Source of the DNA: a bacterium
Lineage (GTDB): Bacteria > UBA8248
Direction: 5' to 3'
NCBI GenBank assembly: GCA_965204535.1
Contig: CBDBEV010000001.1
Location: 192,001-256,000 of the forward strand
Length of the DNA: 64,000 nucleotides
The notes beneath the pieces are model-generated. The model ran no database searches, was not told the DNA's origin, and saw only the letters and a program-made list of their open reading frames with translations. Below, piece by piece: positions 4,600-30,560 of the stretch (position 1 is its first letter; every line of letters begins with the position of its first letter). The position numbers were made by a program, and so were the translations under genes.

Positions 4600-5380
4600 C
4601 GTGGGAGTGCCGGGCTTCTTCGACCTCGACGGGGAGAATCTCTCCATCCGGACCGTGAACGTGGTCGTGCTTGTGGGTGTAGACGGCGAGGCTCTCGGCC
4701 GCATGCTTGCCGAACAGGGCGAGGTATTCGGGGTTTTTGCTCACGGCTTCGGGATGCCCCGTGCAGCAGATGTGCCTGTTGAGGCACACCACGCGGTCGG
4801 TGAACGCCATGACGAGGTGGAGGTCGTGCGAGATCAGGATGACGCCGCAGCCCCTGTCGTCCCTGATCTTCGCGATCAGGCGGTAGAGTTCGCTCTGCCC
4901 GTTGACGTCCACGTTCTGGATGGGCTCGTCGAGAACGAGCAGTTCGGGGTCTCGCAGCAGGGCGCGGGCGAGCAGCACGCGCTGGCGCTCTCCGCCGGAG
5001 AGGCTCTGGACGGGATGATCCAGCAGGTCTCCGGCGCCGACTTCCTCGAGGCTCTCCTCCATCTCCTTAGGCGAAGGCTTCTGCGTGAGGCGCAGCAATC
5101 TGCGCACGGTCAGCGGGAGCGAGTGGTCCACCTCGAAGGACTGGGGCAGGTAGCCGACCGAGAGTCCCTCTTTCCGGCGGACTTCTCCCGAATCGGGCTT
5201 GAGCAGGCCGAGCAGCACGCGGACGAGCGTGGTCTTGCCCGCGCCGTTCGGCCCGATGAGAGTGAGGATTTCAGCCGCTGAAATGTCGAGGCCCACGTTG
5301 TGGAGTATCGTCGTTTCGCCGATTCGGAGATGGAGGTTCGCGGCGGTGACGAGAGAGCGCCGCGCGTCATTTATCATCAT
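4589..5380 (-). CDS. znuC: Zinc ABC transporter ATP-binding protein
   Basis: Walker A GPNGAGKT, LSGGERQR, LDEP, C-terminal CLNRHICCTGHP and HKHDHVH. Confidence 0.93.
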   Translation of the reverse strand: MMINDARRSLVTAANLHLRIGETTILHNVGLDISAAEILTLIGPNGAGKTTLVRVLLGLLKPDSGEVRRKEGLSVGYLPQSFEVDHSLPLTVRRLLRLTQKPSPKEMEESLEEVGAGDLLDHPVQSLSGGERQRVLLARALLRDPELLVLDEPIQNVDVNGQSELYRLIAKIRDDRGCGVILISHDLHLVMAFTDRVVCLNRHICCTGHPEAVSKNPEYLALFGKHAAESLAVYTHKHDHVHGPDGEILPVEVEEARHSHGGR

Positions 5381-5855
5381 GACACTCCTTGCACCTGCCG
5401 CTGATTTCCATGACGGGCGTCTCCACCAGAAAACCGGCCCGGGTGGCGCTCGCCTCGATGGCCTCGCCGATTTCCTCGCTGTGCGTCTCGGCCACGGTTC
5501 CGCAGTCGCGGCAGATGAAGAACTGCGCCTTGTGGGCGTTCCCCGGTGTGGCGCAGCCCACGAACGCCTTTTGACTCTCGATGCGGTGGATGAGGCCGTG
5601 CTTCAGGAGGAAATCCAGCGCCCGGTAGACCGTGGGCGGGGCGCTTCGCCCTCCGTTCTCGTTCATACGCTCGAGCACGTCGTAGGCGCCCATGGGCGTA
5701 TGGCTCTCCCAGATGATCTCCAGCACCCGCCTCCTGAGCGGCGTGAGCCTCGCACCTCGCTCCCTGCAAAGCGCTTCGGCTTGTTCCAGGGCGCTCTCGA
5801 CGCAGGCCCCGTGGTCGCGATCCCTGCCGGGAGAATTCTTTTTCATCGATGTCAT
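5367..5855 (-). CDS. zur: Fur-family zinc uptake regulator
   Basis: RLTPLRRRVLE, PPTVYRALDFL, CRDC and CKEC; adjacent to znuABC. Confidence 0.9.
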   Translation of the reverse strand: MTSMKKNSPGRDRDHGACVESALEQAEALCRERGARLTPLRRRVLEIIWESHTPMGAYDVLERMNENGGRSAPPTVYRALDFLLKHGLIHRIESQKAFVGCATPGNAHKAQFFICRDCGTVAETHSEEIGEAIEASATRAGFLVETPVMEISGRCKECHDDK

Positions 5856-5865
5856 CTAAAGTTCC

Positions 5866-5899
5866 TTGACGAGCAAAATAGTAATGTTATATTATAACA
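5866..5899. promoter_or_regulatory. Zur box overlapping the znuA promoter
   Basis: Perfect 7-1-7 palindrome TGTTATA-T-TATAACA at 5885-5899, matching the proteobacterial Zur box, between divergent zur and znuA. TTGACG (-35) at 5866 puts the -10 region inside the box. Confidence 0.88.
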
Positions 5900-5946
5900 A
5901 ATAGAAAACTTATTCAATCCCATTTCACGCCGAAAGGAAAGAATTC

Positions 5947-7122
5947 ATGAATAGGATCGAATCCATGAAATATATGTTGTTCACTGCGGCCCTGACAATG
6001 ACGCTTATTGCGCGCCTGGCCGCCCCCGCATCGGCCGCGCCCAAGGTGGTGGCCTCCATCAAGCCGCTTCATTCGCTGGTCTCGGGCGTCATGAAGGGGG
6101 TCGGCGAACCTTATCTGCTGATAAAAGGCGCCGCTTCGCCGCATACGTTTTCGCTCAAACCCTCCGACGCCAGGGAGATCGAGCGGGCGCGCGTGATTTT
6201 CTGGGTGGGCGAGTCGCTCGCCCCGAGCCTCGAGCGGCCCCTCGAAGTTCTGCCGAAACGGGCGGAGGTCGTCGCCATGGCGGAGATAAAGGGTCTGAAG
6301 CTGTTGAAGCTCAGGGAAGGCGGCTTGTGGGAAGGGCACGACGATCATCACGGTGAGGACGAAAAAGGCGGCCACCACGACGAACATAAGCGCGGCATGG
6401 CCAAAAAAGACGACCATCACCACGATGAGGACAAACACGGCAAAGGCAAAGATGACCACCACAAGCATGAGCACGAAAAAGCCAAAGACGATCACCATGA
6501 TGATCGCAAACACGCTATGGCCAAAGACAAGCACCACGATGAACATAAACACGAGAAAGCCAAGGATGATCACCACGGCGAGAAGGCCGGGCATCATCAC
6601 AGCGATCTCGACGTTCACGTCTGGCTCGACCCCATGAACGCCAAGAAGTGGGTGCATGAAATCACGCATGAGCTCGAAGAGGCGGATCCTGCGAACAGCG
6701 AAAAATACGAGGCGAACGAAAAGAGGCTTATGGCTCGATTGGACGCCCTGCACGAGGAATTGAAAGGCACGCTCGCGCCCCTGAAAGGCGCGCCCTACAT
6801 CGTCTTTCACGATGCGTATCAATACTATGAGAAACGCTACGGGCTGAACGCCATCGGTTCGGTGACCATCTCGCCCGAGAACAAGCCGGGCGCGGCGCGC
6901 CTCGTCGAGATTCGCAAGAAGGTCAGGGACACGAAATCTATCTGCGTGTTCTCCGAGCCGCAGTTCGAACCCAAACTGGTGAGGGTCGTCATGGAGGGAA
7001 CGGGTGCCGGAACCGGTGTGCTCGACCCCTTGGGCGCGGATATTCCCGCCGGTGAGGACGCGTATTTCACCCTCCTGCGCAACATGGCGAAATCGCTCAA
7101 TACGTGTCTTTCGCGGAAATAA
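5947..7122 (+). CDS. znuA: Zinc ABC transporter substrate-binding protein with a long His-rich loop
   Basis: Signal peptide, VVASIKPLHSLV, SPHTFSLKPSD, HVWLDP, FHDAYQY, FSEPQF. Start may be at 5965. Confidence 0.93.
   Translation: MNRIESMKYMLFTAALTMTLIARLAAPASAAPKVVASIKPLHSLVSGVMKGVGEPYLLIKGAASPHTFSLKPSDAREIERARVIFWVGESLAPSLERPLEVLPKRAEVVAMAEIKGLKLLKLREGGLWEGHDDHHGEDEKGGHHDEHKRGMAKKDDHHHDEDKHGKGKDDHHKHEHEKAKDDHHDDRKHAMAKDKHHDEHKHEKAKDDHHGEKAGHHHSDLDVHVWLDPMNAKKWVHEITHELEEADPANSEKYEANEKRLMARLDALHEELKGTLAPLKGAPYIVFHDAYQYYEKRYGLNAIGSVTISPENKPGAARLVEIRKKVRDTKSICVFSEPQFEPKLVRVVMEGTGAGTGVLDPLGADIPAGEDAYFTLLRNMAKSLNTCLSRK
7045..7122 (+). repeat. Left copy of the znuA 3'-end direct repeat
   Basis: CCCGCCGGTGAGGACGCGTATTTCACCCTC (7045-7074) is identical to 14317-14346; similarity continues to the stop codon. 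Confidence 0.9.
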
Positions 7123-7362
7123 TTTGAGGCGGCGCTTCCCGGGGATATGAACCAGCCCGCTCTATTCCCCCCGCATATCCCCGGGAGCCGCCCGCTATTT
7201 TCGTAGCGGCGAACGGAACCGAAGGGAGTTTCGATGGTTCTGTAGCCGGACAGGCGCAGGAGTCTGTCCGGGCACCTGTGTGTGGTCGGTGAAGCAAGCG
7301 AGCCGGTCCAGCGCTTCATGGCGCATCGTGAACGGGAAATCTGAAAGGGAAAGGAGAAATCG

Positions 7363-23357: not shown

Positions 23358-23639
23358 CTACGCGCCTAGAAATTCCAGCTTGAACCGCACTTTTTCGAGG
23401 AGTTCCACGCGGTGGGGTTCGGTGGGACGGATGACGCCGTAATCGCCGCTTTCCAGGCGGCGACTCCGCTCGGGCGAATCCGGAACGACATAGTCGAGGC
23501 AGCCTTCGAGCACCACGATTCTGGCCCAGATGCCGGGCTTCGTATCGTGCAGGGTCTTGAGTTTTTTGGGGACCGTCTCCTCGGTGAAAACTTTGCTTTC
23601 GTAGAATTTGACGAGTCCTGCCGGCACACTCTCAATCAT
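23358..23639 (-). CDS. DUF1971 (YeaR/TehB N-terminal-like) protein
   Basis: FTEETVP..L...HDTKPGIWARIVVLEG.L.Y...PTEPHRV pattern. Confidence 0.8.
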   Translation of the reverse strand: MIESVPAGLVKFYESKVFTEETVPKKLKTLHDTKPGIWARIVVLEGCLDYVVPDSPERSRRLESGDYGVIRPTEPHRVELLEKVRFKLEFLGA

Positions 23640-23724
23640 ATCGAATCCTCCCATTCGGAGCTGCGTGATGCGCCAATGCCGGCGGCACGGAACATGGGCA
23701 CGAGGATGAATGCCGCATCATTGC

Positions 23725-24174
23725 TCACGCCACCGGATGCCCGGAACCGCCCGTGCCGTACATGGCGATTCGCAGCCCTTTGGCGATTTGCACGGCGTAC
23801 TCCATGAAATAGGCGGCCGCCTCCGGCGTCGGCGCCGTGTCTCTCAAGGTTTCTTCGAACATTTCCAGCCAGACGTCGAAATGCCACGGCTGGACCTCCA
23901 CGAGTTTCTTGTGAGCCTGAATCGGTTCCCCCGAATAACGCCCGGCGTTCAAGGCCACCGTCGCCCAGAAATCCTTCATCTTCTCGAGGTGATGCCCCCA
24001 TCTATCGCGAATGGCTTCATCGAATATCGGCCCGAGCAGCCGATCTTCACGGATGCGGCTGTAGAAAGCATTCACGAGTTCAGAGACGTAAGCCTCGTCG
24101 ACCCCCATCGCGGCGGCTTTCGCCTGGACTTCGGCCCGGCGTTCTCCCACGATGTCGAGATGTGTGGTGTTCAT
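23725..24174 (-). CDS. Group III truncated hemoglobin
   Basis: LVNAFYSRIREDRLLGPIF, WGHHLEKMKDFW, YSGEPIQAH, HFDVWLEMF; ATGA overlap with the Rrf2 gene. Confidence 0.88.
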   Translation of the reverse strand: MNTTHLDIVGERRAEVQAKAAAMGVDEAYVSELVNAFYSRIREDRLLGPIFDEAIRDRWGHHLEKMKDFWATVALNAGRYSGEPIQAHKKLVEVQPWHFDVWLEMFEETLRDTAPTPEAAAYFMEYAVQIAKGLRIAMYGTGGSGHPVA

Positions 24175-24611
24175 GCGCTGTCTCCTGCAAGCAATTCGAG
24201 AAGCGCCGGATTGCGTTTCACCAGATCGTGGATGGTATAGCGATCGAGAACGGTGAAAAAGGCTTCCTGCGCTTCGGCCAGAACGCCCTTCAGCCTGCAG
24301 TGCGGCATCACCAGGCACCCCCCGCTTCCGCCCGGAAAACACTCGACGAGGGGGCTGTTTTGTTCGGTGTGCCTCGCCACCGTCCCGACGGGAATCTTCG
24401 CCGCCGGCCTGGCGAGCCGGAGGCCGCCGTTGCGCCCGCGAATCGCCTCAATATGCCCTGCGCGGCCCAACGCATGTGCGACCTTCATCAAATGGTTTTT
24501 CGAGATCCCGTATCGCTCCGCGATCTCGTGGATCGTGACCAATGCGCCTGCGTGGCAGGCCAGGTGCATCAGCATCCTGAGGGCATAGTCTGTCTGAACG
24601 GTCAGCCGCAT
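24171..24611 (-). CDS. nsrR: Rrf2-family NO-sensing repressor
   Basis: TDYALRMLM, ISKNHLMKV, RGRNGG, three Cys (ECFPGGSGGCLVMPHC); globin downstream and NsrR-type box upstream. Confidence 0.8.
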   Translation of the reverse strand: MRLTVQTDYALRMLMHLACHAGALVTIHEIAERYGISKNHLMKVAHALGRAGHIEAIRGRNGGLRLARPAAKIPVGTVARHTEQNSPLVECFPGGSGGCLVMPHCRLKGVLAEAQEAFFTVLDRYTIHDLVKRNPALLELLAGDSA

Positions 24612-24918: not shown

Positions 24919-24952
24919 AAAAAAACCGGGGGAGTTTTCACGCTCCCCCGGT
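24919..24952 (-). terminator. Intrinsic terminator of the LLM/CMD operon
   Basis: CCGGGGGAG / CTCCCCCGG stem followed by a T-run on the minus strand, just after the CMD gene. Confidence 0.75.
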
Positions 24953-24973
24953 CGCATCATGCGATGCTCTCAT

Positions 24974-25351
24974 CTAATACCCCTCGTCGATCACCTCCTT
25001 GAGCTGCGTGCAGCCGGCCACGAGCGCCGTCATCCCGCAGGGGGGCAGCATGCACTCGAGCGCCTCGGTCGCCTCCTCGACGGTCGCGCCGAGCTGCAGC
25101 GCCTTTTTCAGGTGGTTCTTGATGCCCTCCGTATCGGAGGGATCGCGCGAGGCGCTCGCCACGGCGATGAAGAGTTCCTTGTATTTCTCGTGAAAGGGGC
25201 CCTGCTTCTTCATGATGTGGTTCTTCAGGTTCTCGTAGTTCTCCAGAAGCTCCGGGTCCACCTCGCACAGGAGTTCGTACGCCGGATAGATGAATCCCCG
25301 CGCCGCCTTCATCTCCTCGTACAAGGCCCTGCCCCGCTCGCTCATCGCCAT
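24974..25351 (-). CDS. Carboxymuconolactone decarboxylase (CMD) family protein, no CxxC
   Basis: KYKELFIAVA...HLKKALQLGATVEE pattern. Confidence 0.8.
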   Translation of the reverse strand: MAMSERGRALYEEMKAARGFIYPAYELLCEVDPELLENYENLKNHIMKKQGPFHEKYKELFIAVASASRDPSDTEGIKNHLKKALQLGATVEEATEALECMLPPCGMTALVAGCTQLKEVIDEGY

Positions 25352-25404: not shown

Positions 25405-26175
25405 CTATGGATACACCTCTTTCTCCAGCACGGAAATCTCGTGCCCGGGCAGGATGTATTCCTCCTTCGTGGCGCGTTCGATGCACTTATGAATGGAATC
25501 CATCGCGTCGCGCATGCTCGACATCTGGCCGGCGGGAACGCGGCGCTCGAGGCCTTCGTTTATCTGGATGACGTCGGCGGCGATGACGTAGGTGCCCACG
25601 CGCGTCTCCACGGCGACCGAGCAGTGCCCCGGCGTATGGCCCGGCGTATGGAAATAGGTGACGCCCGGCACGATCTCGGTATTGTCCTTCCAGATGGGCT
25701 CGAAGATGATGCCCTGCTGGGCGATCACCGGCCAGCGGGTGTTGGGGTGGATCGGCGCGTCGTAGGGCTTCGCCTGCAGCGCGACCGGGCACATGGAGTA
25801 TTGAAGCTCCTCCGCCCAGACGTACTTGATCGCGTTGGTGAAAAGATCGCAGTTCTGGGAATGGTCCCAATGCAAATGCGTGAGGATGAGGATGTCCACT
25901 TCCTCGGGCTTCCAGCCCGCGCCCTCCAACTGCTCGCGCACGCCCTGGCCGGGTTCCCTGCTCGCGGGCCAGGGGGCGCCGCCGCGCTCCGGATCGAGAA
26001 AACTGGTGTCGACCACGACCTTCACGTCCTTGCCGTCGTGGTCCTTCGCCCCCTCGATCATGTAGATGAACGAGGGAATCTCGAGTTTCGTCCCGAAATT
26101 CGTCCAATACACCATGTTGGAGTAATCCGTATGGATGGTGCCGCAGTTCAGCGGACGGATGGTGAGGTCTGGCAT
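25405..26175 (-). CDS. Metallo-beta-lactamase-fold hydrolase, N-acyl homoserine lactonase family
   Basis: THLHWDH (HxHxDH), TPGHTPGH, AAD, PGHE. Confidence 0.85.
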   Translation of the reverse strand: MPDLTIRPLNCGTIHTDYSNMVYWTNFGTKLEIPSFIYMIEGAKDHDGKDVKVVVDTSFLDPERGGAPWPASREPGQGVREQLEGAGWKPEEVDILILTHLHWDHSQNCDLFTNAIKYVWAEELQYSMCPVALQAKPYDAPIHPNTRWPVIAQQGIIFEPIWKDNTEIVPGVTYFHTPGHTPGHCSVAVETRVGTYVIAADVIQINEGLERRVPAGQMSSMRDAMDSIHKCIERATKEEYILPGHEISVLEKEVYP

Positions 26176-26294
26176 GGAAACGGTTCCTTTCTGCGTTGTT
26201 TCGCGGCCGAAGCGGCTCGCAAATGAACGATGGCAAGCAAATGCCTGATAATCACCGGCCTGGCGTCAAAAGGCCGGTGAACGGGTGTATGTCG

Positions 26295-26894
26295 TTAAGC
26301 CCGCGCGGTTCGGGAGAAGCGCACCACCTCCATCAACTCATCGGGGCCTTCGGGTTCTATGGCGTCGAGACCGAGCGCGATATTCAGCCGGTTGCTCATG
26401 TTCCGGTACGACACCGAGCCGATGATGTCGAGCACGTTCTCATCGGTAAAACCCGCCTCGCGCAGCGCGTCCAGGTCCGCTTCGCTCATGGCGTAGTGGT
26501 CGAACGTGAGCTTTTCGGCGAAGGCGAGCATCGCCTTGTCCGCATCGTCGAGAGCCGGAGAATTGTCCCTGTCCGTCACCACGGTGGCCACGTCGGCCAG
26601 CGTTACGTCGTCGCCGCTTTCAGCACGGAAAGCCTGGCCATGGTTTATCGTTCAGCCATAGCACCCGCCGATGGTGGCGACGTAGTAGGAGATCAGTTCC
26701 TCGCGCCTCTGGCCCAGCGTCGAATTGCCGCCGTGGACGGCCATGTTCATCGTCTGGCGCCCGTTCAGGACTTGGGGCCTGCGCGCCATCGTGAGCAGCA
26801 GCTTGGGCACCGCGCCTCTTTTCTCCCGGATGCCCTCGAGTATCCCGCGCGCGGGCTCTTCGGCGTCATTCAGCCTTAATGGGGATATCCACAT
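26295..26894 (-). CDS. AhpD/CMD-family peroxidase-related protein, probable selenoprotein (CxxU, TGA at 26652-26654)
   Basis: Two ORF-track fragments are in frame and separated only by TGA: ...EELISYYVATIGGCYG-U-TINHG...AMLAFAEKLT...REAGFTDENVLD...NRL. Hairpin directly downstream of the TGA. Confidence 0.85.
26613..26651 (-). promoter_or_regulatory. Candidate bacterial SECIS element
   Basis: After the TGA: 18 nt, then stem GCTTTC / GAAAGC with loop CGTGCT (G at loop position 2, loop 24 nt from the UGA), extended by GCC/GGC. Confidence 0.68.
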
Positions 26895-26918
26895 TCTCCT
26901 CTCTCCTCGATACCGATG

Positions 26919-27974
26919 CTAGTCGTTTGATTTCGCCGCACGCTCTTCTGCGAACGCGGGCATCACCTCTTTCGCAAACCGCTCTATGGATTCAATCGCC
27001 TCGTCCTGGGCGATGCCGCGCAGCACGAAGATCATGATGTGATTCACCTGAAACTCCGCCTGAAGCCGCTTGAGATCGGCAATCACCTTATCGGGCGGGC
27101 CGATGACGCCGCCGCCCTCGATGACCTGGCGAATGTCGACGTCGTAGCTCCAGTTGCGCTTGAGGGCCTCTTTCTCCTCCAGCGGCATCTCGATGGAATT
27201 CACCGCGCTGCGGTAGGAGAGATACCAGGATTCGGAGGGTTCGATTTGCCGCCAGGCGTGTTCGGGGTCGTCGCACACGTGGACGTGATGCGCCATGAGG
27301 GAGGGATAATCGTTCGGGTCGCCGCCCCGGCCCCGCACGGTTTCCTGGAAGAGCGCCATTTTCTCGAGATACACGTCCGGCCCCTTGAAGGTGCCCGACG
27401 CCATGATGTTGTACCCCCTCTGGCCCGCGAAGACGTAGGTTTCAGGGCTCGTGCCGGCCAGCCAGATGGGAGGGCGCGGCTTCTGGATGGGTTTTGGGAA
27501 AATTTCCGCGTCGACGCAGCTGTAGTGCTTCCCGTGATAGGTGAGGCATTCCCCCTCCAGCAGGCGGGTCATCACTTCGAGACCCTCCTGCATCTTCTCC
27601 CTGCTCTCGGATGGGGAGATGTTGAAGCCCTGAAATTCCTTGGGCTGGGAGCCGCGTCCGACGCCCAACTCCAGGCGTCCGCCGCTCAGAACGTCGACCA
27701 GGGCGGCCTGCTCCGCCAGTCGCACCGGATTGTGGAAGGGCATGATGCAGATGGCGGTGCCGATCCTGATCTTCCTGGTTCTCTGCGCGATGGCGAGTGC
27801 GACCATCAGGGCGTCGGGGCACATGCCCACGCGGGAGAAGTGGTGCTCGGCCAGGAACACCGTGTCGTAGCCGAGTCCGTCGGCCACCTCGCATTGTTCG
27901 ATCAGCTGATCGAACTCGTGCTTGTAGCTTTCTCCCTCCTGACAGGCAGGAATATAGAAAAGCGAGAATTTCAT
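26919..27974 (-). CDS. Luciferase-like (LLM) flavin-dependent monooxygenase
   Basis: FLAEHHF, RLAEQAALVDVLSGGRLELGVGRG, PKPIQKPRPPIW, FAKEVMP. Confidence 0.9.
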   Translation of the reverse strand: MKFSLFYIPACQEGESYKHEFDQLIEQCEVADGLGYDTVFLAEHHFSRVGMCPDALMVALAIAQRTRKIRIGTAICIMPFHNPVRLAEQAALVDVLSGGRLELGVGRGSQPKEFQGFNISPSESREKMQEGLEVMTRLLEGECLTYHGKHYSCVDAEIFPKPIQKPRPPIWLAGTSPETYVFAGQRGYNIMASGTFKGPDVYLEKMALFQETVRGRGGDPNDYPSLMAHHVHVCDDPEHAWRQIEPSESWYLSYRSAVNSIEMPLEEKEALKRNWSYDVDIRQVIEGGGVIGPPDKVIADLKRLQAEFQVNHIMIFVLRGIAQDEAIESIERFAKEVMPAFAEERAAKSND

Positions 27975-28021: not shown

Positions 28022-28420
28022 TTACGCGCCCATCGTGAACACCTTGTCCGCCCGGATGCGGTAGATGACGCGCACCTCGCCCTCCCGGCGGTTCGGATAG
28101 CTGTCCACGCCCAGGTACTTGTTCGCCAGGGCGTCGATGTGCGCATCCGCCCCGTTTTCGGTGAACTCCACCACCGTGCCCTGAATCCCCACATATTTAT
28201 AGGGATTCTCCGGGTCGACGATGGCGATGGACACCTTGGGCCTTGCGCGCATGTTCAAGTCCTTCAGGCGGCCCTTGGCCGAATTGACCTCGATGATGTC
28301 TCCGTTGGTCCCGAACCACACGGGTGAGACCTGCGGGGAGCCGTCCTTGTTCTGCGTGCCCAGATACAGGAGGGCCTTGGTGTCGAGAATGCCGGCATGA
28401 GATTCGGGTATCAGCGCCAT
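28022..28420 (-). CDS. PPOX-class (split beta-barrel) probable F420-dependent oxidoreductase
   Basis: TQNKDGSPQVSPVWF, KDLNMRARPKVSI, DALANKYLG..YP...RVIYRI. Confidence 0.82.
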   Translation of the reverse strand: MALIPESHAGILDTKALLYLGTQNKDGSPQVSPVWFGTNGDIIEVNSAKGRLKDLNMRARPKVSIAIVDPENPYKYVGIQGTVVEFTENGADAHIDALANKYLGVDSYPNRREGEVRVIYRIRADKVFTMGA

Positions 28421-28468: not shown

Positions 28469-29449
28469 TCATACGCACCTGGGCAAAACCTCTTCGGTGA
28501 ACATTCTGAGAGATTCGTCGAAATCCTGGTTCGGGGGGTCGATCATGATGCTCCTGACCCCGTAGGACTCGATCTCCTGGATGCGGTCGACGCATTCCTC
28601 GGGCGTTCCCGTGATGGTGAAGCGGTCCAGAATGTAGTCGGTGATGAGCGGCACGTGCTTGGGGTCGCGCCAGTTGCTCACGTCGAAGTTGTCCAGAAGA
28701 TGTTTGATTTCGGGCTTGTACGGGTCGGGCACCGAGTCGAGCGTCATGCGGAAGTTATGGTGCGCACGGTTCGCCACCCGCGCCCGCACCTTCTCCCGCG
28801 CGCGTACGCTGTCTGTATCCACCGATACGACCGCGCCGAAAATGATGTCCATCTCGCCGAGTGAGGGGTCGCGATTCGCCATCCCCTCGTTCAGATACTT
28901 CATGACCCAGTCCACCGTCTCCTTGTAGACGCCCGAACCCACGATGACGCCTTCCGCGACTTCGGCCGACATGGCGAGCGTCCTGGGGCCTTCGGCGGAG
29001 GTGTAGATGGGGATATCGCGCGCGCACCACATGTTCACGTTCACGCCTTCTGCGTATTCCACCGTCTCGCCGCGCGTGAAGGCGCGAACCGCCGCGATGG
29101 ACTCGCGCATCCGCGCGAGTCGGGCCATCTTCTTGCCCAGCGTGTAGACGGGCGTATCGCCCGAGCCGATGCCGAAGATCACGCGGCCTCCCGAAAGCTC
29201 GTCGAGCGTGGCGATGGCGCTCGCCGCCACGCTGTCGTCGTGCAGCACCGGATTCGTCACGCCGGGGCCGATTTTCACGTGCGAGGTGTTCTCTATCGCC
29301 AGGGCGAGTGCGATGTTGTGATCCCGGCAGGTGAGGTGGCTCTCCGCTATCCACACCTGCTCGAAACCGTTGTCCTCGGCGTATTTCGAGCGCTCCGCCA
29401 CGACCTGGACGTCATCCGGCACCAAATGAAGACTAAAGCTCATACCCAC
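28469..29449 (-). CDS. LLM-class oxidoreductase, Mer-like (probably F420-dependent)
   Basis: WIAESH, IGPGVTNP, IATLDELSGGRVIFGIGSGD, EGPRTL, GTPEEC. Confidence 0.82.
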   Translation of the reverse strand: MGMSFSLHLVPDDVQVVAERSKYAEDNGFEQVWIAESHLTCRDHNIALALAIENTSHVKIGPGVTNPVLHDDSVAASAIATLDELSGGRVIFGIGSGDTPVYTLGKKMARLARMRESIAAVRAFTRGETVEYAEGVNVNMWCARDIPIYTSAEGPRTLAMSAEVAEGVIVGSGVYKETVDWVMKYLNEGMANRDPSLGEMDIIFGAVVSVDTDSVRAREKVRARVANRAHHNFRMTLDSVPDPYKPEIKHLLDNFDVSNWRDPKHVPLITDYILDRFTITGTPEECVDRIQEIESYGVRSIMIDPPNQDFDESLRMFTEEVLPRCV

Positions 29450-29489: not shown

Positions 29490-30560
29490 TCAAGCGTTGT
29501 TTCCATTCGAGCCGACGGGCGCGGTGGCGTTCACCAGCGGCATGACGTCGTTGGCGAAGCTCTCAATCGAGCGCATCACCGAGGCGTGGTCCGGCCCGCG
29601 CCAGGGGGCCAGGATGACGTGATTGACCCCGTACTCATCGCGCAGCCTGCAAATGTCTTCCGCCACGGCCCCCGGATCGGCGATGATGCCGCCGCCCCTG
29701 ACGATCTCGGCGACGTCCAGCTCATAGCTCCAGTTGCGCTTCAAGTGCTTCGCCTCATCCTCGGGCATTTCCACCTCGTTCATCTTCGCCCGGTAGCGCA
29801 GGTACTCGCCCTCGCCCTCCACCGTGAGGTTGAAGTATTCCTCCGCATCCGCCGCGTCGCACACGTGGATATGGTGAACCAGTGGCCTCTCGATTCCGGC
29901 GGGGTCGCCGCCCGATTTTCGGATGGCGTCCTCATACAGCCCGAACTTCTGCTTGTAGACTTCCGGGCCGGTGAAGCCCGCCGAGGCCATCACCTTGAAG
30001 CCGTTCTCGCCCGCATAGGTGTAGGTTTCGGGGCTCGTTCCCGCCAGCCAGATGGGGGGCCTGGGCTTTTGGAGGGGCTTGGGGAAGATTTCCACGTCCG
30101 CGCACTGATGATACCGGCCCTGGAACGTCACCTTCTGCCCTTCGAGGAGGCGGGAGAGAATGTGGAGTCCCTCTTTTAAGCGCTCGCGGCTTTCAGACGG
30201 TTTTGCACCGAACCCCTGGAACTCCTTGGGCTGGGAGCCGCGCCCGATGCCCAGCTCCAGCCTGCCGCCGCTTAAGAGATCGACCATGGCGGCCTGCTCG
30301 GCCAGCCGGATGGGATCGTGGAACGACATGATGGAAATGGCCGTGCCCAGGTGAATTTTTTTTGTCTTTTGCGCGACTGCGGCGCAGATGAGGAGAGGGT
30401 CGGGGATCATCCCGACGCGGGAGAAGTGATGCTCGGCGTACCATACGCAAGCGTAGCCCAACTCGTCCGCCAGTATGCTTTCCGTGATCATATCCTCATG
30501 GACCTGGGTCTCGGTCATGTCTTCGGGACGATACAGGATGTAGAACAGCGAAAATTCCAT
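29490..30560 (-). CDS. Luciferase-like (LLM) monooxygenase, paralog of 26919-27974
   Basis: AEHHFSRVGM, GRGSQPKEFQGF, PPIWLAGTSPETY and LKRNWSY shared with the paralog. Confidence 0.9.
   Translation of the reverse strand: MEFSLFYILYRPEDMTETQVHEDMITESILADELGYACVWYAEHHFSRVGMIPDPLLICAAVAQKTKKIHLGTAISIMSFHDPIRLAEQAAMVDLLSGGRLELGIGRGSQPKEFQGFGAKPSESRERLKEGLHILSRLLEGQKVTFQGRYHQCADVEIFPKPLQKPRPPIWLAGTSPETYTYAGENGFKVMASAGFTGPEVYKQKFGLYEDAIRKSGGDPAGIERPLVHHIHVCDAADAEEYFNLTVEGEGEYLRYRAKMNEVEMPEDEAKHLKRNWSYELDVAEIVRGGGIIADPGAVAEDICRLRDEYGVNHVILAPWRGPDHASVMRSIESFANDVMPLVNATAPVGSNGNNA

Follow-up and report, generated by a model that had tools for sequence, protein, structure and literature searches.

One gene across an in-frame TGA

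Two short open reading frames separated by a TGA lie on the minus strand at 26894-26295 of the window, by which we mean the whole 64,000-nucleotide stretch of DNA that was analyzed. The question that this locus raises is whether they are an interrupted gene or one gene whose TGA is decoded as selenocysteine (Sec), and, if the latter, what the enzyme does. Translation gives 199 codons with a single internal TGA at codon 81, and the 80-aa and 98-aa frames that the initial annotation had joined do belong to this one frame (80 + TGA + 20 + 98 = 199 codons). As it had also claimed, a single TGA joins the halves at an AhpD-type redox motif, here C78-Y-G-TGA81-T-I-N-H85. The gene and its key positions are as follows.

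26295..26894, minus: AhpD-like (TIGR01926) predicted selenoprotein gene, from the 199-codon frame, a TIGR01926 score of 112 bits against a cut-off of 81.8, and the fold model
26652..26654, minus: in-frame TGA, codon 81, predicted Sec at the second position of CxxU, from conservation in orthologues and sequencing runs
26661..26663, minus: Cys78, the sole Cys in the protein, which is TGA in the UxxU sister clade
26697..26699, minus: Glu66, counterpart of the AhpD proton-relay Glu, 12 residues before the first Cys (PMC3141380, in part)
26640..26642, minus: His85, counterpart of the AhpD proton-relay His, from the alignment and PMC3141380 (in part)
26895..26908, minus: purine-rich ribosome-binding site ahead of the ATG, from the sequence

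If the TGA were a true stop, the locus would be a pseudogene, a sequencing error or a pair of small proteins, and the databases do keep the halves apart: the best 15 matches are C-halves of 109-154 aa, and P0043 is an 80-aa N-half. Conservation argues otherwise. An orthologue search over 61 genomes found a one-TGA orthologue in 26 of them (27 matches). In 26/26 loci fetched, which span 3 genera and 59-99% identity, codon 81 is TGA, although the stop that ends the gene differs among them (TAA 11, TGA 11, TAG 4). On both sides of the TGA, dN is 0.03-0.10 against dS of 0.39-0.67 in 6/6 pairs, and by this sequence measure both halves are under purifying selection. There is no conserved restart after the TGA, because codon 83, from which a 117-aa C-half in the databases starts, varies across the 26 loci (ATG in 21, Leu in 3, GTG in 1) and is ATA in the window.

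Beyond these genomes, 44 metagenome loci were found and 42 examined; the 41 that cover the column have TGA in 39 and Cys in 2. Contigs from 4/4 sequencing runs, one of DNA type (depth 114, possibly the window's source) and three of RNA from 3 other studies, keep the TGA with no change there, and the one difference listed for them makes codon 83 an ATG. Among 203 database proteins compared, the alignment is continuous over the TGA, and Cys occupies the column in 137 of the 164 that cover the motif, including P0044, a full-length Cys-coded member of the same subfamily. The break would moreover fall within the catalytic helix of a continuous predicted fold. We therefore regard a true stop as highly improbable: the frame 26894-26295 is a single conserved gene, and its internal TGA very likely specifies selenocysteine.

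Several individual loci depart from the common pattern. The Cys-only member L126 / P0044 is nested among CxxU clades, lacks both of the hairpins described below (A and B), and is likely a Sec-to-Cys reversion. The orthologue at L105:3001-3596 reads F-Y-G-TGA, having lost the first Cys, and lies outside the operon; it is known from one contig only and could reflect an error or a variant with one Sec. One genome, G014, has two orthologue copies (G014:C3:31036 and G014:C1:3328474), and the L028 orthologue carries an 8-residue deletion in its C-half. DNA of relatives was found in sponge and marine metagenomes, among other sources.

Selenocysteine machinery and the predicted selenoproteome of the genome

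The genome holds selA, selB, selD and the tRNA-Sec gene (selC), selD itself has an in-frame TGA, and selA is present in 49/51 genomes of the phylum. These observations also bear on the idea that the TGA is read as Cys or Trp, in a recoded genome or by a near-cognate tRNA, for which nothing speaks beyond the open frame itself. Against it, the same gene ends in TGA in some orthologues and in TAA or TAG in others, tRNA-Sec alone among 52 tRNAs bears a UCA anticodon, and the in-domain TGAs of the genome sit at redox-Cys sites of known selenoprotein families. Such a reading is about as improbable as a true stop. The 199-aa AhpD-like Sec enzyme that had been proposed is thus supported, as far as sequence can speak, by TGA conservation, the Sec machinery and its family and fold match.

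The window gene has much company. A profile scan of the genome gave 18 clear AhpD/CMD-like loci, 13 with a TGA motif, 2 with CxxC and 3 motif-less, so that there are 12 further Sec-type AhpD-like genes beside the one studied here. Across the phylum the profile has 2-23 matches per genome in 51/51 genomes (8-18 within the genus), and TGA is found in all 150 listed of the 592 matches. From 477 coding-like TGA sites in the genome, 41 were hand-picked for a domain check: in 24 the TGA lies within a Pfam domain, in 3 of GrdB type it comes shortly past the domain, 1 more is a paralogue of these three, and 13 failed. Three deiodinase-like TGA genes fall below their family cut-off. Together, the picked sites, the 13 AhpD-like genes, SelD and the 3 deiodinase-like genes bring the number of predicted selenoprotein genes to 44-45. 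The assembly has 5.26% contamination, and the count is a rough lower bound. It is near the bacterial records of 57 and 63 given in the part of PMC13188914 consulted, and the lineage, with 13 Sec-AhpD and ~45 selenoprotein genes, lies outside the selenoprotein-rich groups named there in that 2026 review. The databases call the Sec-AhpD genes as fragments.

The predicted set (L157-L186, L198, L199, L004) includes 5 OsmC-like, 4 Prx-like, 4 DsbA-like, 3 deiodinase-like and 2 rhodanese proteins, as well as GrdA, GrdB-type, UGSC, DUF3179, DsrE and phosphatase-like PF04273 members. A glycine-reductase-like cluster at G000:C2:69000-75800 (L163, L185, L187) encodes GrdA, GrdB and a component B subunit with in-frame TGAs. 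At L152 (G000:C2:1074896-1076139) a CxxU AhpD-like gene is directly followed by a Cys-less AhpD-like gene, resembling the pairing in the window of the Sec gene with a CMD gene lacking CxxC. A repeated element of ~11 copies in the genome (for instance at C2:621445, C2:1707305, C1:742683 and C1:195420 of G000), probably the end of a mobile element, gave spurious TGA matches.

Family, fold and active site

With U scored as C, the window protein passes TIGR01926 (112 against 81.8) and Pfam CMD, and it falls below the cut-offs of the named (seleno) AhpD families NF053654 (45.5 of 310) and NF041238 (26.3 of 175). The structure model of the read-through protein (pLDDT 95.5) is predicted to be an all-helical AhpD fold, with Foldseek matches of the model to 3C1L, 2PRR, 2PFX and 6K40 at TM 0.68-0.74. 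Glu66, Cys78, Sec81 and His85 match Glu118, Cys130, Cys133 and His137 of AhpD as described in the available text of PMC3141380. The window gene belongs to a known family because TIGR01926/CMD, the fold and the relay residues all match.

That family is already on record: the available text of PMC13188914 lists AhpD-like TIGR01926 CxxU among selenoprotein families. The AhpD-like selenoproteins described previously (TIGR01926/COG2128, "AhpD-like 1", Sargasso Sea and GOS surveys) have the same CxxU with Sec in second position, an in-frame SECIS element and genes split by gene callers. The window subfamily differs in its identity to the named members (~30-35%), in the Gly before Sec and in its luciferase-like operon. 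The window gene is thus a new member of a cataloged AhpD-like CxxU selenoprotein family, and alone it only corrects annotation.

Among characterized relatives, Mlr4105 (3C1L), DR1765 (6K40), 2PFX, 2PRR and PA0269 have the same Glu...CxxC/U-x-x-x-His arrangement, the first four with the all-helical fold noted above. These peroxidase-related structures have Cys-x-Tyr-Cys, whereas the window protein has Cys-Tyr-Gly-Sec and a C-terminal helix at 185-198. Mycobacterium tuberculosis AhpD shares the spacing of the Glu, the two redox residues and the His, but is a weak overall match (Foldseek E 0.5-0.8), and its His132 is Gly in the window protein. This Gly80 is found in 26/26 orthologues, where the five-residue relay has His/Tyr before the second redox residue, a position described as not absolutely conserved in the part of PMC3141380 consulted.

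Predicted SECIS hairpins and their probable turnover

The initial annotation had placed a GCTTTC/GAAAGC hairpin with a G-containing loop downstream of the TGA. It is present at 26633-26616, with its loop after 24 nt and G as the second loop base, and it overlaps an older element.

26616..26633, minus: predicted SECIS hairpin B, 6 bp, 6-nt loop, G-U at loop positions 2-3, from conservation and the model in the consulted part of PMC13188914
26624..26642, minus: remnant 5-bp stem of ancestral hairpin A, which overlaps and excludes hairpin B

The SECIS model, as the same part of PMC13188914 gives it, has a loop of 3-9 nt on a stem of 4-16 bp, G in the first two loop positions, a distance of 16-37 nt after the UGA and an energy of at most -7.5. 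Hairpin B agrees in loop (6), stem (6), second-position G and distance (24 nt); its energy is -6.7 alone and -10.6 counting lower pairs. This energy is unremarkable, with folding z-scores of only -0.8 and -1.1, and 23% of 300 random TGAs have a hairpin that passes the same loose scan. Since the z-scores are modest and random TGAs often match, the hairpin is weak evidence when taken alone; what supports it is conservation. Across the window's clade 95.8% of its cells are paired. One pair shows compensatory change, which traces to a single event, and the 3 related sequences that carry it also break the next pair. Synonymous variation at codons +7 to +13 of this clade drops to 0.020, against 0.04-0.32 in most other 7-codon bins, although one other bin is equally invariant (0.016).

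All outer clades use another form, hairpin A, with its G-U loop 16-17 nt past the UGA, as against 24 nt in the window's clade. The G-U loop is found at hairpin A in 11/11 distinct CTGU sequences and 7/8 outer ones, and stem B is absent there. In the window's clade, stem A is kept in 10/12 distinct sequences without the G-U loop, in two metagenome members stem A is broken and B intact, and 2 Cys-coded relatives have neither hairpin. Because the outer clades use A and the window's clade keeps B without A's G-U loop, the SECIS loop of this clade appears, from the sequences compared, to have shifted ~8 nt downstream from the ancestral position. Such turnover would mean that a SECIS element was replaced inside conserved coding sequence.

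A sister gene with two predicted selenocysteines

The closest paralogue in the genome (G000:C2:2009087-2008488; L006:3-602, minus; L040), at 45% identity, reads TGA-Y-G-TGA, that is, UxxU in place of CxxU. It is present in 24/51 genomes of the phylum. Both TGAs are kept in 24/24 genome loci, which come from 3 genera and share 50-99% identity, as they are in 7 metagenome loci. Its flanks are under purifying selection in 5/5 pairs, and its TIGR01926 score, with U counted as C, is 88.2 against the cut-off of 81.8. The databases label its C-half "hypothetical protein".

A single hairpin may suffice for this gene. Codons +7 to +13 make up the bin with the least synonymous variation (0.009), and hairpin A pairs in 98.4% of cells of the UxxU clade, without two-sided changes. 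Its loop lies 16 nt past the second UGA and 25 nt past the first, both within 16-37, and the window's own spacing of 24 nt suggests that a distance of 25 nt is usable in this lineage. We predict from these sequences that one hairpin A serves both UGAs.

In a midpoint-rooted tree of 71 rows, the UxxU sequences group as a single clade (100/99) that joins the window's clade (100/97) within CxxU lineages. Because they form one clade within CxxU lineages, the tree points to one Cys-to-TGA change. Downstream of the UxxU gene comes a DUF1499 or TauE gene and not the window's operon. At one locus, yqeC (selenium cofactor) and a xanthine-dehydrogenase-type gene (L092:13131-14081 and 4856-7204) are no more than 5 kb away from it.

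Two TGAs three codons apart are likewise found in the cataloged UxxU selenoproteins in the available text of PMC13188914 (Prx-like, the NF041115 metal-binding protein and the FmdB family), but these have unrelated folds and none is AhpD/CMD, for which that text lists CxxU only. None of its 5 mentions of AhpD and 3 of UxxU brings the two together, and the accessible parts of PMC9312934 and PMC2398784 likewise contain no AhpD UxxU. Searches of the main texts of openly available papers found none either, and no NCBIfam model for such a form appeared. The predicted AhpD-fold UxxU form is thus new here and missing from the catalogs searched.

Taken as a whole, we think it quite probable that an AhpD-fold Sec-x-x-Sec protein, a predicted diselenide catalyst absent from the searched catalogs, had a single origin in a Cys-to-TGA change of a CxxU ancestor, with one ancestral hairpin decoding both UGAs; that the window's clade replaced this hairpin with one 8 nt further on; and that the lineage (Nitrospinota-labelled, sponge-associated and marine) multiplied Sec-AhpD to 13 per genome among ~45 selenoprotein genes. 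If so, CxxC (P0044), CxxU (window) and UxxU (paralogue) would make a natural series, ~45% identical and in one small fold, that would allow a direct test of one versus two selenocysteines in a redox enzyme. The UxxU gene would also show how two UGAs at a distance of 9 nt share a single bacterial SECIS.

Operon context and proposed function

The window gene is one of seven minus-strand genes that run from 30560 to 24974.

29490..30560, minus: third luciferase-like gene, accessory, a separate copy in 5/12 genome loci
28469..29449, minus: Mer-like luciferase-family oxidoreductase, accessory, 9/12 genome loci
28022..28420, minus: PPOX-class, predicted F420-dependent protein (TIGR03618, 96.1 against a cut-off of 79.05), 11/12 genome loci
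26919..27974, minus: luciferase-like monooxygenase (PF00296), 24 nt upstream of the Sec gene and adjoining it in 12/12 genome loci
25405..26175, minus: metallo-beta-lactamase-fold, lactonase-like hydrolase (PF00753, below lactonase family cut-offs), 12/12 genome loci
24974..25351, minus: 125-aa CMD-family protein (PF02627) without CxxC, 75-100% conserved, 12/12 genome loci
24924..24953, minus: terminator-like 11-bp hairpin and T run closing the gene run, of a kind found at 4 sites against 4.5 expected by chance; its position fits

A four-gene core of oxygenase, Sec-AhpD, hydrolase and CMD gene is intact in 12/12 genome loci and in 4/6 metagenome loci of the clade; because the 12 genome loci, from 3 genera, are kin, they do not amount to 12 independent observations. 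The L105 locus lacks the core neighbors, L104 lacks the hydrolase and CMD genes, and the sister clades UxxU and CTGU lie outside this operon. The luciferase-like/F420 setting given in the initial annotation holds in part: cofD and cofG are present in the genome and the PPOX neighbor passes TIGR03618, but 0/3 luciferase-like genes pass an F420-specific cut-off.

We lean towards a mechanism in which Sec is inserted with the help of SelB, Sec81 and Cys78 run a redox cycle of the AhpD type, and the enzyme serves the pathway of the neighboring oxygenase. In AhpD, the attacking residue is the second redox residue. For the window protein, SelB on hairpin B would almost certainly bring Sec-tRNA to codon 81. 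By analogy with M. tuberculosis AhpD, Glu66 and His85 would then very probably act as the proton relay while Sec81 attacks a peroxide or an oxidized-sulfur bond and Cys78 resolves it to a selenenylsulfide, which a cellular reductant (lipoyl/NADH in the AhpD precedent) would regenerate. Given such a cycle, the adjacent flavin oxygenase would fairly likely supply the target, either a hydroperoxide or oxidized-sulfur intermediate or its by-product H2O2. In the UxxU sister this cycle would pass through a diselenide, with one hairpin 25 and 16 nt downstream serving both UGAs. That the window gene stays fixed in one operon despite 12 other Sec-AhpD genes suggests a pathway task, and the enzyme is likely a dedicated reductase of the oxygenase-hydrolase-CMD core. 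A literature search for a link between AhpD, LLM and sulfenic chemistry found nothing relevant.

The protein could instead be a selenoprotein with a general antioxidant role, a weak peroxidase or an electron donor to peroxiredoxin/OsmC, whose place in the operon is incidental. DR1765 (6K40, the second-best PDB sequence match) protects against H2O2 and requires its CxxC, according to the consulted part of PMC8945050, PA0269 is described as a weak peroxidase in that of PMC3141380, and the genome encodes several Prx-like and OsmC-like candidate partners. Yet its position in the four-gene core is fixed over 3 genera, any of 12 other Sec-AhpD paralogues could fill a general role, and ahpC is missing both from its neighborhood and, by the TIGR03137 cut-off of 272 (best score 78), from the genome. 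We consider a general role rather unlikely and retain the pathway-bound reductase as the preferred reading.

If the enzyme were instead a selenium version of the Bmp8 reductive dehalogenase, its selenolate would strip halogen from a sponge-habitat aromatic and feed the oxygenase and hydrolase. Bmp8, a tetrabromopyrrole debrominase that removes bromide via Cys oxidation (PMC5577590, as far as available), is of the same fold family with its redox pair in the same helix (6OHI/6OHJ, TM 0.64-0.66; profile match E 1.3e-11), relatives of the window gene come from sponge metagenomes, and the 3 deiodinase-like TGA genes, below family cut-off as they are, would be in keeping with such chemistry. However, Bmp8 ranks beneath the peroxidase-related proteins in both fold and profile matches, and no brominase genes were seen near the window gene. 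Its motif is C-x-x-C-x-x-H (His at +3) with Trp at the position of the relay Glu, whereas in the window protein Glu66 stands at that position and the His is at +4, and the Bmp8-like His spacing is found in 9/13 genome paralogues but not in the window protein. For this enzyme we judge dehalogenation quite unlikely. That part of the Sec-AhpD family are selenium dehalogenases for sponge organohalogens is also unlikely, if a little less so.

The other 11 Sec-type AhpD-like genes lie at L144-L154; 9 of them have U-x-x-H-N, the Bmp8-like His spacing, and most have a GGUC-type loop 21 nt past the UGA. These would be the best candidates for dehalogenase activity. Within the operon, a perfect 10-bp inverted repeat at 26252-26280 lies between the Sec and hydrolase genes, with no minus-strand T run after it. 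Just past the operon, at 23358-24611 of the window, are an Rrf2 regulator, a globin-like ORF and a DUF1971 gene, shared with some close relatives only.
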